A stretch of DNA of 64,000 nt from Candidatus Gottesmanbacteria bacterium (GTDB taxonomy: Bacteria > Patescibacteriota > Microgenomatia > UBA10105 > UBA927). The notes under the pieces were generated by a model. It saw only the letters and a program-made list of their open reading frames with translations, made no database searches and was not told the DNA's origin. A program made the translations under genes and the position numbers. Below are positions 44,123-63,596 of the stretch, one piece after another. Location of the stretch: the NCBI GenBank assembly GCA_963711735.1, contig CAVQFA010000003.1, positions 284,367-348,366 of the forward strand. Direction: 5' to 3'. Position 1 is the first letter of the stretch. Each line of letters begins with the position of its first letter.

Positions 44123-44153
44123 GAGGCGAACGTTCATTGTTCGCTTCTTTTTT
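44123..44153 (+). promoter_or_regulatory. terminator-like hairpin + T6 in the rpoB leader (putative attenuator)
   Basis: GAGGCGAAC / GTTCGCTTC 9-bp stem (one G-U), 7-nt loop, then TTTTTT, lying 35 nt before the rpoB ATG. Confidence 0.35.
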
Positions 44154-58096: not shown

Positions 58097-58165
58097 TTCG
58101 TACGTTTTATTACTGGACACCCGCAGGTAAATTTTATACAATTGGATAAAGAGTTATGAAGCATT

Positions 58166-58194
58166 AGCTGCTTCGGAAACGGAGCAGTTTTTTG
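58166..58194 (+). terminator. rho-independent terminator ending the inserted operon
   Basis: CTGCTTC-GGAAAC-GGAGCAG stem-loop followed by TTTTTT. Confidence 0.55.
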
Positions 58195-58265
58195 TTGTTG
58201 CATAAAATTGTGCATGATTGATCGGGATTACTTTGAAATCATTTCGCAATGTATGCAAAGAAACT

Positions 58266-60371
58266 ATGGCATCACAACAAACACAAATTACGCTGAACCG
58301 CGATGTTCCTCTTGAAAAAGTCAGAAACATCGGTATTATCGCGCATATCGATGCCGGGAAAACCACAACAACGGAACGGATTCTCTATTATACCGGTCGT
58401 TCATACAAGATCGGAGATATTGATGAAGGAACAACGGTCATGGACTGGATGGATCAGGAGAGGGAACGGGGCATCACGATAGTGTCCGCAGCGACTACAA
58501 CATTCTGGAAAGGATTTCGTTTCAATATCATAGATACTCCCGGACATGTAGATTTTACTGCAGAAGTGGAGCGGTCTTTGCGGGTCCTTGACGGCGGCAT
58601 TACGGTACTGGATGCTGAGGAGGGTGTGCAATCCCAATCAGAAACAGTCTGGCACCAGGCGGATAAATATAAAGTTCCGCGAATATGTTTCATCAATAAA
58701 ATGGATAAAATCGGAGCGGATTTCCGGGCTACTATCCATTCCATAGAAGAACGGCTTGGGGCACGGACTGCCGTCATGGTTGTTCCGATAGGGGCGGAAC
58801 ATGAATTTAAAGGAGTTATTGATCTTCTGTCCAAAAAAGCATATATCTGGGGGAGTGATGAACTGGGTGCCAAATTTGACGTTACGGACGATATTCCGGA
58901 AAAACTAAAAGCTGAAGTAGAAAAATCACGACATGATCTCATAGAAAGGATATCCGAAACGGATGATGTTCTGATAGAAAAGTACCTCAACGGGCAGGAG
59001 CCCACAGTTGATGAGCTTAAAAAAGCACTTCGCGCAGCCGTTATTGCATATAAATTAGTTCCGATATATGCAGGATCAAGCCTTCGGAATAAAGGGGTTC
59101 AGCCGGTACTCGATGCGGTTATTGATTATCTTCCGTCTCCTTTGGATTTACCTCCTGTTGAAGGTATTCATCCCAAAACAAAGGAAAAGTTACAGAGAAA
59201 ACGTATTGTTACGGATGCGTTTTCAGGCCTGGCTTTCAAAATTCAAATTGATCCGCATGTCGGGAAACTTACATATGTCCGCATATATTCAGGTAAACTG
59301 GAATCCGGTTCGTATGTGTACAATTCTACTAAGGATAAACAGGAACGCATCGGAAGACTTCTTCTCATGCATGCCAATCAGCGTGAAGAAATCAAAGAAG
59401 CGTATGCAGGAGAAATTGTTGCAGTTGTTGGTTTCAAAGATACAACTACGGGCGATACCATCTGTGATAATGATCATCCGATTGTTCTTGAGCAAATATC
59501 ATTTCCTGATCCTGTTATTTCCCTTGCTATTGAACCGAAAACGAAAAATGATCAGGAGAAAATGGGATTTGCCCTTCAGCGTCTGGCGGAAGAAGATCCG
59601 ACGTTCAAAATTCGCTCAAATCAGGAGACAAATCAAACAATCATTTGGGGAATGGGAGAGCTTCATTTGGACATTATTGTTGACCGGATGCAACGTGAGT
59701 TTAAAGTAGAAGCCAACGTCGGTGCTCCCCAGGTTGCGTACAAAGAAACAATAAAAACTCCCGCTGAAGGTGAAGGTAAATATATACGTCAGACCGGTGG
59801 CCGTGGGCAATACGGTCATTGTTTGATAAAAATTGAACCTAAAGGCAGAGGTGAAGGATTTGAATTTATTGATGCGATCAAAGGCGGCGCAATTCCGAAC
59901 GAATATAAAGCTCCCATCGAAAAAGGCATAAAAGAAGCTATGGAAAACGGTGTTCTTGCCGGATACCCGATCGTAGATATGGAAGTGACTCTTTACGACG
60001 GTACGTATCATGAGGTGGATAGCTCAGAGATTGCATTTAAAATCGCCGGAAGCATGGCACTGCAGGATGCAGTAAAAAAAGCGTCACCGATACTTCTGGA
60101 ACCGATTATGAAAGTAGAGGTTACGACACCTGATGAATATATGGGTGATGTGATCGGAGATCTCGGCGCGAAACGTTCTCAGATCATGGGAACACAAAAA
60201 CGCGGGACTGTTACCATCATTTTAGCGATGGTTCCGCTCGCTGAACTGTCCGGATATGCCACAACGCTGCGGAGCATGTCCAAAGGAAGAGCAACATACT
60301 ATATGGAACCGTCACATTATGAAGAAGTACCGAAAAATATTGCAGAAAAGATCATTGCACAAAAAGTATAA
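58266..60371 (+). CDS. fusA: elongation factor G
   Basis: [15 protein letters not shown] and DTPGHVDF are present. The ATG at 58266 ([11 protein letters not shown]...) is preferred. Confidence 0.95.
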
Positions 60372-60512
60372 GCTATGTTAGAATGCTGTCACAGCAGCTG
60401 AGAAATTCAGTTGTGTTTTTCAGTTGGCAGTAAGGTATAAGTCAGATGGATTTTGTTTTCCGATTTTCGTAAAAGTTGATAAAATCGTGAAGACACTTCC
60501 AGAAAGGAATAT

Positions 60513-61700
60513 ATGGCGGAACAGCAAAAGTTTAAAAGAACTAAAACCCATTTAAACATTGGGACAATTGGTCATGTGGATCACGGAAAAACGACATTAA
60601 CTTCAGCAATAACTCACGTTCTTGCAAAAGCAGGATTGGCAAAAGCTTTGAAATACGAAGAAATTGACAATGCTCCTGAGGAAAAAGCCCGCGGTGTGAC
60701 GATAAACATTCATCACTCTGAATACGAAACAGCGAAACGTCATTATGCGCACATCGATGCACCAGGACACGCTGATTATATCAAAAACATGATTACAGGA
60801 GCTGCCCAGATGGACGGCGCCATTTTGGTGGTATCAGCACCGGACGGTCCGATGCCGCAAACAAGAGAGCACATTCTTCTTGCGAAACAAGTGAACGTAC
60901 CGGCAATAGTCGTATTTATGAATAAATGCGATATGGTGCAGGACAAAGAGCTTCTTGATCTTGTTGAAATGGAAGTTCGTGAACTGTTAACCAAATATAA
61001 ATTTCCGGGCGATAAAGTTCCCGTTATCAGGGGGAGCGCACTGAAAGCACTTCAGGGTGATCCGGAAGCAGAAAAAATGATACAGAAACTGATGGATACG
61101 ATCGACACATACGTACCGGATCCGGTGCGTGAACTCGAGAAACCGTTCCTCATGCCTGTAGAAGACGTGTTTTCTATCAAAGGCCGGGGAACAGTTGTAA
61201 CCGGTAGGGTTGAGAGGGGAAAAGTGAAAGTAAATGAGACAGTTGAACTTGTTGGTATACGGGCGACGCAATCAACGGTGGTTACGGGTGTCGAAATGTT
61301 CCGGAAGCTTCTAGACGAAGGTATGGCTGGTGATAATATAGGCCTCTTGCTCCGTGGGATTGAAAAAAATCAGGTAGAGCGGGGACAGGTTGTAGCAGCA
61401 CCGGGGTCAGTGAAGCCTCATACGGAATTTGAAGCAGAGATATACATTTTAGCAAAGGAGGAAGGTGGACGACATACGCCGTTTTTCAGTGGGTATCGTC
61501 CGCAATTCTATATCCGAACAACTGATGTAACCGGAGAAGTAACACTTCCGGCTGGTGTAGAAATGGTTATGCCGGGAGACAGTACAAAAATGACTGCTAA
61601 GTTGATTGTGCCGGTTGCCCTTGAAGAAGGAGTACGGTTTGCTATCCGTGAGGGTGGTCATACAGTCGGAGCAGGAGTAATTACAAAAATTATTGCGTAA
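60513..61700 (+). CDS. tuf: elongation factor Tu
   Basis: [18 protein letters not shown] and NKCD are present. 395 aa. Confidence 0.97.
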
Positions 61701-61755: not shown

Positions 61756-62064
61756 ATGCCGAAAGGAAGAATTCGTGTTCGTTTAAAAGCGTACGACAGC
61801 AGAATTTTAGATGATTGCTGTCAGAAAATATTGGATGTTGCCGTTAGAACCGGTGCGAAGGTTGTGGGACCGGTACCTTTGCCCACAGACAGAGAGCATT
61901 ATAACGTAGCCAGAAGTACGTTCATTGACCGCAACAGCAGAGAAGATTTTATCATTAAGACTCACAAACGTCTTATAGATATTATCGAACCGACCGATAA
62001 GACGATCGATCAACTCATGCATCTGGATTTACCGGCAGGTGTTGATGTTGAATTAAAAATGTAA
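61756..62064 (+). CDS. rpsJ: 30S ribosomal protein S10
   Basis: MPKGRIRVRLKAYDSRILD... 102 aa. Confidence 0.95.
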   Translation: MPKGRIRVRLKAYDSRILDDCCQKILDVAVRTGAKVVGPVPLPTDREHYNVARSTFIDRNSREDFIIKTHKRLIDIIEPTDKTIDQLMHLDLPAGVDVELKM

Positions 62065-62192
62065 CTATACGATAAGGGGATCTATACTTGTCGTTTAAGA
62101 GATACTTTGGTATACTACACGGTTACAAAGGTATGGAGAAAAAGACTTCATATTTGTAAAACGGTATACCAAAAGTCTCGATTGAGATTCTC

Positions 62193-62219
62193 ACGACCTC
62201 AAATCGAGGTCGTTTTTTT
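62193..62219 (+). terminator. strong intrinsic terminator hairpin + T7 between rpsJ and rplC (with alternative antiterminator pairing)
   Basis: ACGACCTC-AAATC-GAGGTCGT 8-bp stem followed by TTTTTTT. CTCGAT at 62178-62183 can alternatively pair with ATCGAG at 62203-62208. Confidence 0.55.
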
Positions 62220-62224
62220 GTTCT

Positions 62225-62848
62225 ATGCTTACTACCATACTTGGAAATAAAAACAGTCAGGAACAGGCATACACTCCGGAAGGAAAACGGATTGTTGTAA
62301 CGCGCCTTACGGTTGGACCGTGTTATATTACGTCCGTATCGGATGCTCCCAATGGGCGTCAGGTTCAATTGGGTTTCGGAAAACTTCATCATCCGAATAA
62401 AGCTATCCTCGGACACCTGAAAAAGGCCGGACTGGAAGATAAAAAACTGCACCACTTTCATTCTACGACGATTGACGCATCAGATGAGACCATCAAATTA
62501 GGTCAGGAAATCCGGGTGGAAAATCTTTTTCAGGTAAAGGATACGGTGACCATAGTTGGTACGAGTAAAGGAAAAGGATTTGCCGGAGTTGTTAAACGTC
62601 ATAATTTCAAAGGCGGCCCGCGGACCCATGGTCAATCAGACAGAGAGCGTTCACCCGGATCTATCGGACAGACGACTACCCCGGGTCGCGTCTACCGGGG
62701 GAAAAGAATGGCAGGACGTATGGGTGGTGAGAGAGTGACTGTGCATGGTTTACAGGTTGTAGACATTGATCCTAAAACAAACAGTATGACCGTACGTGGT
62801 TTGGTACCGGGAGGTACCAACGGACTATTAGTTATAACGAAGGAATAA
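62225..62848 (+). CDS. rplC: 50S ribosomal protein L3
   Basis: ILGNKNSQEQAY...VTRLTVGPCYITSV corresponds to ILGKKvGMTQ...VTVIEaGPcvVtQv. 207 aa. Confidence 0.9.
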   Translation: MLTTILGNKNSQEQAYTPEGKRIVVTRLTVGPCYITSVSDAPNGRQVQLGFGKLHHPNKAILGHLKKAGLEDKKLHHFHSTTIDASDETIKLGQEIRVENLFQVKDTVTIVGTSKGKGFAGVVKRHNFKGGPRTHGQSDRERSPGSIGQTTTPGRVYRGKRMAGRMGGERVTVHGLQVVDIDPKTNSMTVRGLVPGGTNGLLVITKE

Positions 62849-62852
62849 CACT

Positions 62853-63596
62853 ATGCCAACAAAAAGAATTCCAAAAAAGGAAGTAAAAAATAAACGTACC
62901 ATCAGTTCTGTACGCCGCAAGGCGGTTTCAGAGAACGCCGCACCCGTTAAAAAGCCCGCAGTGACAAAAAAACGTACACAAACTACCGCGGTCATTCCGA
63001 AAAAGAAAACTGAATCTTCCGATTTGCCAAAGTCTCTGTTTCAGGTTGAAGTAAAAAATGCAGTACTTACCCAGGCAGTACGCATGTATCTTGCCAACCA
63101 ACGTTTTGGCCAGGCATCTACGAAAACCCGCGGGCAAGTAGAAGGATCAACGAGAAAAGTTTATAAGCAAAAGGGAACCGGACGTGCTCGTCACGGTTCA
63201 ATCCGGGCACCGATATATGTCGGGGGCGGTATCGTATTTGGTCCAAAAACGCGTGATTACAGTATGAAAATGCCGCAATCCATGCGGCACGCCGCCATTC
63301 GTATGGCACTGAGCGTTAAATATTCTGAAGGAAATATTATAGTTACGGATAAGTTTGAAAAAATGGAGCCAAAAACAAAAGTAATGGCTTCATATCTTAA
63401 ACAACTTGCGGGTGACGGAAAGATGCTTATTGTCTGCGGAGACATGAAGCAAGAATATATCCGCGGACTTCGGAATATCAACCGGGTAACTCTCCTTCAG
63501 GCATCTTCTCTTAATACATACGAAATATTATCACACAAAAAAATTATCATAGAAAAAAAGGCACTACCGGTATTAGAAACAGTATTTGCAAAATAA
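62853..63596 (+). CDS. rplD: 50S ribosomal protein L4 with ~50-aa Lys-rich N-terminal extension
   Basis: KQKGTGRARHGSIRAPIYVGGG is the L4 signature. Confidence 0.9.
   Translation: MPTKRIPKKEVKNKRTISSVRRKAVSENAAPVKKPAVTKKRTQTTAVIPKKKTESSDLPKSLFQVEVKNAVLTQAVRMYLANQRFGQASTKTRGQVEGSTRKVYKQKGTGRARHGSIRAPIYVGGGIVFGPKTRDYSMKMPQSMRHAAIRMALSVKYSEGNIIVTDKFEKMEPKTKVMASYLKQLAGDGKMLIVCGDMKQEYIRGLRNINRVTLLQASSLNTYEILSHKKIIIEKKALPVLETVFAK

Follow-up and report, generated by a model that had tools for sequence, protein, structure and literature searches.

A candidate three-helix transcription attenuator in the rpsJ-rplC spacer of Patescibacteria

In the DNA stretch analysed here, 64,000 nucleotides (nt) from Candidatus Gottesmanbacteria bacterium (assembly GCA_963711735.1, contig CAVQFA010000003.1, forward-strand positions 284,367 to 348,366; hereafter the window), the gene for ribosomal protein S10, rpsJ, is followed by a terminator-like hairpin that stands directly in front of rplC, the first gene of a long ribosomal protein cluster. 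How can RNA polymerase enter rplC if a terminator lies at its very doorstep? Comparison with related genomes indicates that this hairpin, T, would be one of three mutually dependent helices located in the rpsJ-rplC spacer. Together with an anti-terminator (AT) and an anti-anti-terminator (P1) it probably constitutes a conditional terminator. Coordinates of all the features are collected in Table 1.

The stem of T, ACGACCTC paired with GAGGTCGT, has 8 base pairs, five of them G-C, a loop AAATC and a free energy (dG) of -12.3 kcal/mol. Its T7 tract is followed by GTTCT and then by the rplC ATG, which leaves 5 nt between them. In all these details the initial annotation of the spacer, which had noted an 8-bp GC-rich hairpin with T7 ending 5 nt short of the rplC start codon, was correct. 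A GC-rich stem-loop continued directly by a U tract on the transcribed strand is the usual composition of an intrinsic terminator; termination itself is predicted. The hairpin pattern alone does not make T significant: a pattern scan found eight terminator-like sites in 8 kb, compared with 6.5 expected in shuffled sequences, so T is not beyond chance by this measure. It is significant because relatives conserve it. The GC-rich stem and a tract of five to nine U are kept in 46 loci. We aligned the element in two ways, with MAFFT (A1, 44 distinct instances) and with a covariance model (A3, 46 sequences). In both alignments 93-95% of the T cells are paired, and four or five pairs change on both sides.

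By L3 the closest genomes found are metagenome-assembled genomes of Patescibacteria (Gottesmanbacteria, Woesebacteria, Roizmanbacteria), with no more than 55% identity, S10 being up to 92% identical. L3, L4 and elongation factor Tu (EF-Tu) of the window remain singletons when proteins are clustered at 90% identity; they come from a contig of 567 kb. Searching metagenomes with S10 yielded 80 loci whose S10 is 69-96% identical. Their rpsJ-rplC spacer is 73-440 nt throughout, apart from a few longer than 1 kb. The initial annotation had described a gap of 160 nt as unusual. The length is borne out by the reading frames (61756-62064 and 62225-62848), but the unusualness is not, as the gap is also 90-920 nt in other Patescibacteria and about 100-250 nt in Bacteroidota, and gaps of 9-65 nt occurred in our sample only in Chloroflexota and Actinomycetota. 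A sizeable spacer is normal for the lineage and is no signal by itself. The folding of the window spacer is far more stable than that of its shuffled versions (-50.7 against -33 kcal/mol, z = -4.7, none of 200 shuffles reaching it).

The element was found in the same spacer of 46 loci including the window, all from Patescibacteria/Microgenomates (S10 72-96% and L3 about 45-60% identical). A covariance model R1, built from A1, was run on both strands of the window and of all 160 loci (1.17 Mb). There was exactly one strong match per locus, always on the coding strand and always between rpsJ and rplC. The window match covers 62099-62219 and scores 88.9 bits (E about 1e-15). Nothing else scored in the 64-kb window and no other strong match was present in 1.17 Mb; further copies of the P1 arm within the window did not exceed chance either. 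Weaker R1 matches (E from 1e-5 to 0.4) fall into the same spacer of a more distant clade with S10 71-80% identical. Comparative alignment, proposed in the initial annotation as a check, shows the region to be present and structured in every close relative found.

Loci with S10 at least 84% identical, together with loci L131 and L137, share a spacer pattern that starts with 5'-GAGAUACUUUGG(UAUACU) and continues with a variable insert, ACCAAAAGUCUCGGAUGAG, a short linker or optional hairpin, and AACGACCUC-AACC-GAGGUCG-U5-9. The size of the element varies naturally between minimal 71-nt and 146-nt forms. An extra hairpin of variable sequence (e.g., AAUCCGCAAAGGGCGGAAA) occupies the AT loop in L081, L108, L110, L111, L114 and L116, though not in the window. 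Two other kinds of insertion surround the element. A repeat with a GTCATCCCGAGCGAAGTCGAGGGAT-type hairpin is inserted upstream of it, after the rpsJ stop codon, in L001, L086, L090, L094, L099 and L113. Another insert, 110-270 nt long (GATGrCTGGTTAGCGAG...CAATCCGCCA...), lies between the U tract and rplC in L081, L085, L089, L106 and L107. Both look like small mobile or repeat elements.

Helix P1 is formed by GAGA-(UA bulge)-CUUUGGUA pairing with UACCAA-(A bulge)-AG-UCUC. Its cells are 92% paired in A1 and A3, with four to six pairs changed on both sides. AT in its general form pairs CUCGGaUGAG with CUCAaCCGAG, that is with the last three bases of the T 5' arm, the T loop and the first three bases of the T 3' arm (alignment columns 154-156 and 163-165 plus the loop). 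AT and T are mutually exclusive, and the CUC at 62177-62179 belongs to both P1 and AT. In the window AT has ten pairs with one bulge; the GG to AU change in its 5' arm is compensated by a CC to AU change in the other arm. The AT pair G108-C156 is replaced by A-U in seven sequences, and the T partner of column 156 remains G in them. This change therefore supports AT itself and not a by-product of T conservation. The AT 5' arm can also fold locally in the window, as GUCUC-GAUU-GAGAU.

Taken together, P1 and T are paired in 92.9% of the cells in A1, with eight pairs changed on both sides (slid controls 32-45%), and in 93.2% of the cells in A3, with eleven such pairs (slid controls 33-48%). For AT these values are 87.1% with five pairs changed on both sides in A1 (slid controls 15-56%) and 87.9%, again with five, in A3 (slid controls 23-64%). 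None of 500 shuffles equalled the observed values in any of these four comparisons; for AT this refers to the covariation score, 0.15-0.16 compared with 0.10 in shuffles, and all these figures are supportive and not probabilities. The initial annotation had proposed that CTCGAT pairs with ATCGAG (62203-62208). This pairing exists, covaries and excludes T, but CTCGAT is located at 62177-62182, one base off the reported position, and the six pairs are really a part of the longer, ten-pair AT. So the terminator and its alternative pairing were recognised correctly, and the attenuator logic proposed for the spacer passes the check by alignment and covariation; P1, the promoter nested in it and the short reading frame described below had been missed.

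Table 1. Features of the rpsJ-rplC region discussed in the text (window coordinates; ORF, open reading frame; MFE, minimum free energy).
Feature	Position	Strand	Details
fusA	58266-60371	+	ORF
tuf	60513-61700	+	ORF
rpsJ (ribosomal protein S10)	61756-62064	+	ORF and translation; tblastn against relatives, 69-96% identity; PF00338 on the same gene in a second assembly
rpsJ-rplC spacer	between 62064 and 62225		160 nt
Promoter-like site (putative)	62088-62116	+	-35 TTGTCG 62088-62093, 17-nt spacer, TG 62108-62109, -10 TATACT 62111-62116; consensus scan
P1 5' arm	62099-62112	+	GAGAUACUUUGGUA; GAUACU invariant, UA bulged; in the window the helix reaches 62116
Hairpin P1a (in P1 loop)	62123-62159	+	UUACAA..GUAUGGAG / CUUCAUAU..UUGUAA; MFE fold; buries the mini-ORF start codon
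Mini-ORF	62133-62159	+	AUG GAG AAA AAG ACU UCA UAU UUG UAA (MEKKTSYL*); starts 16 nt after the -10; translation predicted
P1 3' arm	62167-62179	+	UACCAAAAGUCUC; final CUC = first three bases of AT
AT (anti-terminator) 5' arm	62177-62186	+	CUCGAUUGAG
AT 3' arm	62198-62208	+	CUCAaAUCGAG; spans the end of the T 5' arm, the T loop and the start of the T 3' arm
T (predicted intrinsic terminator)	62193-62219	+	stem 62193-62200 / 62206-62213, loop AAAUC, U7 62213-62219
rplC (L3)	62225-62848	+	ORF call; heads a tight gene cluster
rplD (L4)	62853-63596		followed by rplW at the window end

The energies point in the same direction. T is a part of the MFE fold of most instances. On average, folds with AT are less stable than folds with T by 4.8 kcal/mol in the presence of the P1 5' arm and by 2.3 kcal/mol in its absence, P1 shifting the balance by about 2.5 kcal/mol. 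When the RNA was cut at the end of the AT 3' arm, all nine AT pairs formed in prefixes lacking the P1 5' arm; with the arm, P1 was closed and AT was mostly reduced to six of its nine pairs. From these prefix folds it can be expected that AT forms first on the nascent chain, T has to displace it, and P1 tips the contest towards T. By comparison, P1, AT and T are shown to be conserved and covarying, with T as the predicted thermodynamic ground state. On these grounds the arrangement reads as that of an anti-anti-terminator, an anti-terminator and a terminator. What distinguishes an attenuator from a plain terminator can be pointed out here: an evolutionarily kept helix that excludes the terminator (AT), a biasing sensor that shares CUC with this helix and covaries (P1), and a promoter-like site upstream (putative) with no room for a promoter after T. 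We consider a three-helix conditional terminator, taken on its own, to be highly probable.

The minimal forms show most clearly why T cannot be absolute. In L082, L093, L098, L101, L105 and L112 the spacer consists of little else than the element, which extends from the rpsJ stop codon up to 2-11 nt ahead of the rplC start, and no internal -10-like sequence is found in these six loci. Every rplC transcript in them must therefore cross T. Since their rplC would be transcribed only through it, T must be, as judged from these spacers, either conditional or leaky. In L131 and L128 the distance between rpsJ and rplC exceeds 1 kb, and the element still adjoins rplC, which identifies it as a leader of rplC and not as a trailer of rpsJ. 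The 1-2 kb inserted between the two genes in L128, L131, L149, L151 and L156 presumably contain one or more genes; of these five loci, L128 and L131 are those with a detectable element.

In the window and in most of its relatives a promoter-like site overlaps P1. TGnTATACT is located at columns 10-18 of the P1 5' arm in 33 of the 44 instances. In nearly all of the 34 instances with at least 12 nt after the rpsJ stop codon, TTG is found at -11 to -9 from the P1 start, i.e. at the 17-nt spacing. The -35 element is outside the RNA motif and is nevertheless kept at a fixed distance, which argues for a real, if putative, promoter nested in P1. Transcription is predicted to start at about 62122-62124, 3' of the P1 5' arm. 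As the start falls after this arm, RNAs born at the nested promoter are unable to form P1 and should favour AT. Consequently, in addition to being a site within an operon, the element would also be the 5' leader of an rplC transcription unit. L086, L131 and L137 have a -10-like element upstream of P1 instead, and in L131 TGATATACT precedes P1. Together with the six minimal forms this makes nine instances without a promoter inside P1; all of them retain P1, AT and T.

Wherever the P1 loop is long, an AUG lies 10-20 nt downstream of the -10 element and opens a frame of 7-17 codons (mini-ORF). An in-frame stop codon precedes the P1 3' arm in 19 out of 25 cases compared with 11.9 expected by shuffling (P about 0.003), and in the other two frames such stops were found in only 3 and 6 out of 25. 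From the end of the stop to AT the distance is mostly 13-17 nt (range 4-17). About 25 of the 44 instances, and the distant clade as well, have a mini-ORF with statistical support, and the remaining instances lack it; the geometry of its overlap with the helices is only loosely compatible with a ribosome-mediated switch. Hairpin P1a joins the AUG, in relatives, to a CAU further downstream; it is paired in 71% of the cells on a further alignment, A2. This percentage refers to a hairpin specified by hand; RNAalifold predicted no consensus structure for the P1-loop region, where outliers were misaligned. Support for P1a can be called moderate.

The distant clade has the same layout made of other sequences: TTGCAA-17-TATAAT, followed after 7-17 nt by AUCAUGRAG opening a frame of 5-9 codons (10 codons in L139). 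The stop codon is 6-16 nt (22 nt in L139) before CGGAU, after which comes a terminator GCCCCGAUCCGGGGC-U7. The loop of this terminator pairs with CGGAU, and CGGAUUUUGGG pairs with CCCCGAUCCG inside the terminator, which repeats the logic of AT and T.

How, then, would the element work? T would act as an intrinsic terminator abutting the rplC start. AT, taking parts of both T arms and the T loop, would exclude T, and closed P1, holding the CUC required by AT, would weaken AT and allow T to form. Read-through would then depend on whether the lower part of P1 is closed or open at the moment when the polymerase passes over the U tract. In the window, transcripts arriving from tuf-rpsJ carry both P1 arms and would mostly stop at T; those starting at the nested promoter (about 62123) lack the 5' arm and would mostly pass into rplC. 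The invariance of GAUACU and of the bulges in P1 exceeds the requirements of pairing, and the only DNA-level role of this segment is that of a promoter spacer. This invariance, combined with the retention of P1 by the nine instances without a promoter in it, suggests that P1 is recognised by a factor acting in trans. At its smallest the sensor is a hairpin of about 33 nt whose bulges are conserved. A metabolite aptamer would need a more elaborate fold; for protein sites such simplicity is typical. Most likely a protein clamps the invariant bulged lower P1 (GAGA-UA-CU / AG-UCUC) and favours termination. By precedent such a protein could be a ribosomal protein from the operon, more probably L4 than L3, providing negative feedback. 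We put at about even the chances that the element is a cis-acting transcription attenuator controlling whether RNA polymerase enters the rplC (L3-L4-...-SecY) operon, such a protein effector included.

Several points weigh against this protein-controlled attenuator. All the support for it is comparative or thermodynamic, and the shuffle controls behind the covariation figures ignore the kinship of the sequences. In the window and most relatives the nested promoter would yield RNAs without the P1 5' arm, on which a repressor binding P1 could not act. P1 and AT overlap by just 3 nt, hence the modest size of the predicted P1 effect. Mimicry of ribosomal RNA pointing to a given ribosomal protein was not found when the conserved segments were aligned to 16S and 23S rRNA of E. 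coli; nothing scored above shuffles. The best mimicry matches, to the 16S 790-loop AGAUACCCUGGUA (11 out of 13 positions) and to 23S UCAACCGAG, were no better than shuffles and were rejected. CUCGAUGAG in 23S domain I, which we believe to be near the L4 site and not conserved in B. subtilis, was dropped and not used.

The two main rivals each explain a part of the data and fail on a subset of instances. The terminator may simply sort transcripts by origin, with no factor acting in trans: RNAs from tuf-rpsJ fold P1 and then T and stop, whereas RNAs begun at the nested promoter form AT and continue into rplC. The element would then be constitutive, insulating two transcription units and sensing nothing. 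The position of the -10 element inside the P1 5' arm, the predicted start after this arm, the completion of AT on nascent RNA lacking it and the absence of a terminator between tuf and rpsJ all fit well, and so does the need for EF-Tu in excess over ribosomal proteins. However, in the nine instances without a promoter in P1 all the transcripts carry P1 and must reach rplC nonetheless, and pure sorting gives no reason for GAUACU and the P1 bulges to be more invariant than pairing requires. As a full explanation we find it rather unlikely. Alternatively, a ribosome terminating at the mini-ORF stop, or at the rpsJ stop in the minimal forms, could sit on one of the P1 arms and change the choice between AT and T, making transcription of the operon follow translational capacity. 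This agrees with the placement of the AUG behind the -10, with the enrichment of in-frame stops and their location just ahead of the P1 3' arm, with comparable short frames between TATAAT and the AT arm in the distant clade, and with P1 beginning at the rpsJ stop codon in the minimal forms. An AUG close to the 5' end is also normal in this genome, as many window genes have leaderless-style starts. Yet eight promoter-bearing instances have no AUG in the loop, L086, L131 and L137 lack a mini-ORF and have no rpsJ stop close by, and the peptides are not conserved; part of the ORF conservation could stem from the P1a stems. Besides, RNA born at the nested promoter cannot form P1, so covering its 3' arm changes nothing, and the 10-nt reach of a terminating ribosome misses AT in most cases. 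Control by a ribosome alone is accordingly quite improbable. Both inputs may be combined in one switch, of a type so far undescribed, with a promoter nested in its own sensor helix. T would stop tuf-rpsJ transcripts and be bypassed by those born 10 nt further, a ribosome terminating on the nearly leaderless mini-ORF, or at the rpsJ stop in the minimal forms, would open the helix, and the operon would be tuned by ribosome availability and not by free ribosomal protein. We mention this scheme as an unlikely, though coherent, one.

Two further alternatives give termination a lesser or a simpler role. A hairpin placed 11 nt upstream of an rplC start devoid of a Shine-Dalgarno (SD) sequence could, with its alternative fold, control ribosome access, either through repression by a protein or as a standby site, termination being secondary. 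In most relatives 0-14 nt separate the U tract from the rplC start and, without an SD, a U-rich single strand may be a loading site; E. coli L4, too, controls translation as well as transcription. But a GC-rich stem with five to nine U is a signature of termination, kept even in seven relatives with a 110-270-nt insertion before rplC. Such a translational operator can coexist with attenuation; as the primary function it is very improbable. T could also be an ordinary terminator of tuf-rpsJ, with upstream complementarity arising by chance and leaky expression of rplC, or it could delimit, together with the promoter, a stand-alone small RNA of about 97 nt. The hairpin pattern by itself is indeed within chance. 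However, AT covaries even within the T loop, where a plain terminator would tolerate drift; the P1 5' arm covaries too, despite lying upstream of the putative small RNA start; the 5 nt after T leave no space for an rplC promoter; and the minimal forms are promoter-less. We regard this explanation as hardly probable.

No Rfam family matched the region at E up to 10, the whole window at gathering thresholds or seven relatives at E up to 1. In the literature searched, no leader is described between rpsJ and rplC and no ribosomal leader in Patescibacteria. An autoregulatory ribosomal protein leader is a conserved structured RNA directly upstream of ribosomal protein genes that binds a protein of the operon, often by imitating the rRNA site of this protein; the spacer contains such an RNA, and the protein binding would be a prediction from it. 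The initial annotation had compared it with the L4-mediated attenuation of the E. coli S10 operon. The E. coli leader, subject to L4-mediated, NusA-dependent attenuation and to translational control, is likewise structured and has a conditional terminator hairpin ahead of ribosomal protein genes including rplC and rplD. It is situated upstream of rpsJ, however, and the window element downstream, so that S10 escapes control. No similarity of sequence or structure to the E. coli leader (HA-HE) was detected and there was no Rfam match, though Rfam may hold no model of that leader. To our knowledge, it has not been described as a classical switch between an anti-terminator and an anti-anti-terminator, unlike the three covarying helices found here. 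The placement after rpsJ and the similar logic noticed in that comparison stand, but as an analogy with no homology found: the element, being neither 5' of rpsJ nor homologous to the enterobacterial leader, does not belong to the E. coli S10 leaders.

A ribosomal leader candidate of Archaeoglobi is located directly upstream of rplC-rplD-rplW-rplB, and L4 was proposed as its ligand by precedent; that study names no Patescibacteria (Eckert and Weinberg, 2020; PMC7247131). The Archaeoglobi motif is unrelated to ours. In archaea S10 is grouped with elongation factor genes and not with L3, as in the window. The rpsJ motif of Peptostreptococcaceae is a ribosomal leader candidate from the same neighbourhood, found in the 5' untranslated region of rpsJ (PMC11109978); it comes from another phylum, precedes rpsJ and showed no detectable similarity. 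Leaders of Firmicutes (L20 of infC-rpmI-rplT; L10, L13, L19, L21) belong to the same class, in which a protein-binding helix chooses between an anti-terminator and an intrinsic terminator. They differ from the window element in genes, sequences and phylum, and none of them scored on the window at E up to 10. The trp and pyrBI leader-peptide attenuators also have a short ORF after the promoter, before mutually exclusive helices and a terminator. In contrast to them, the window element has no runs of regulatory codons, its peptide is not conserved, the fit to a ribosome footprint is loose and the ORF is absent in a third of the instances. Overall, we would class the element as a new family belonging to a known type of regulator, from which its nested promoter and mini-ORF may depart.

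We know almost nothing of gene regulation in Patescibacteria (candidate phyla radiation), which are not known to grow by themselves and possess very few regulators. For these bacteria the element would represent a leader of a ribosomal protein operon, outside Rfam and the literature searched, and would employ a three-helix mechanism. In this lineage, as in archaea, S10 (NusE) would be expressed together with elongation factors EF-G and EF-Tu, a regulated boundary setting it off from L3-L4. Should both the mini-ORF and the nested promoter be functional, one and the same terminator would be read differently depending on the origin of the transcript and the state of its translation.

Some other identities were considered for the element and its parts. 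BoxA, recognised by NusB/NusE, is a single-stranded GYUCUUUAANA-like element (PMC5725501). Of its 11 positions 7 agree with the P1 5' arm, but the common variant CUCUGAUA alters a critical U and covaries with the 3' arm as a helix does, so BoxA was rejected. A metabolite riboswitch was set aside in view of the minimal sensor, a single bulged hairpin of about 33 nt, and an RNase III site because the minimal helix is too short. ARAGORN found no tRNA or transfer-messenger RNA in the 64-kb window.

tuf and rpsJ are separated by 55 nt without a terminator. In a second assembly with the same contig the cluster headed by rplC has, according to Pfam, the order L3-L4-L23-L2-S19-L22-S3-L16-L29-S17-L14-L24-L5-S14-S8-L6-L18-S5-(a product without Pfam match)-SecY-Adk, with no large gaps; the product between S5 and SecY is possibly L15. 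L4 of the window has 247 amino acids, with a lysine/arginine-rich N-terminal extension of about 55 residues. In relatives its length varies from about 204 to 307 amino acids (products cut by a contig end excluded) and the extension is very variable. It was considered as a clue to the effector and found uninformative, its length being variable throughout the relatives.

The absence of an SD in front of rplC had been attributed to the hairpin in the initial annotation. The SD is absent indeed, but the hairpin is not the cause, since most of the window genes lack it too. An SD-like tetramer (AGGA, GGAG or GAGG) precedes 9 of the 45 window ORFs of at least 150 amino acids, the background being 13%. 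rplC is counted among these nine; its GAGG is the terminator 3' arm, too distant upstream to serve as an SD. Many window genes have a -10-like hexamer TAnnnT 6-8 nt upstream of the ATG (e.g., at 1391, 15937, 17516, 20996, 24226 and 33595), which suggests that leaderless mRNAs are widespread in this genome.

Other hairpins with T runs precede further genes of the window. A promoter-like TGGACA-17-TACAAT followed by a strong hairpin and T run (58166-58189, dG -13.8 kcal/mol) is located at 58114-58195, about 75 nt before the fusA ATG at 58266, and may be a second leader or attenuator. fusA is not preceded by rpsL or rpsG in the window; the ORF upstream of this hairpin contains a PCHRV motif, probably the one typical of Ogt/MGMT-type methyltransferases. 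Just upstream of tuf a hairpin and T run are found at 60394-60414 (within 60356-60420) after a TG-TAGAAT -10-like element, and another pair is just upstream of rpoB at 44123-44147 (within 44123-44153, dG -13.1 kcal/mol). Terminator-like hairpins seem to recur before core transcription and translation genes in this genome.

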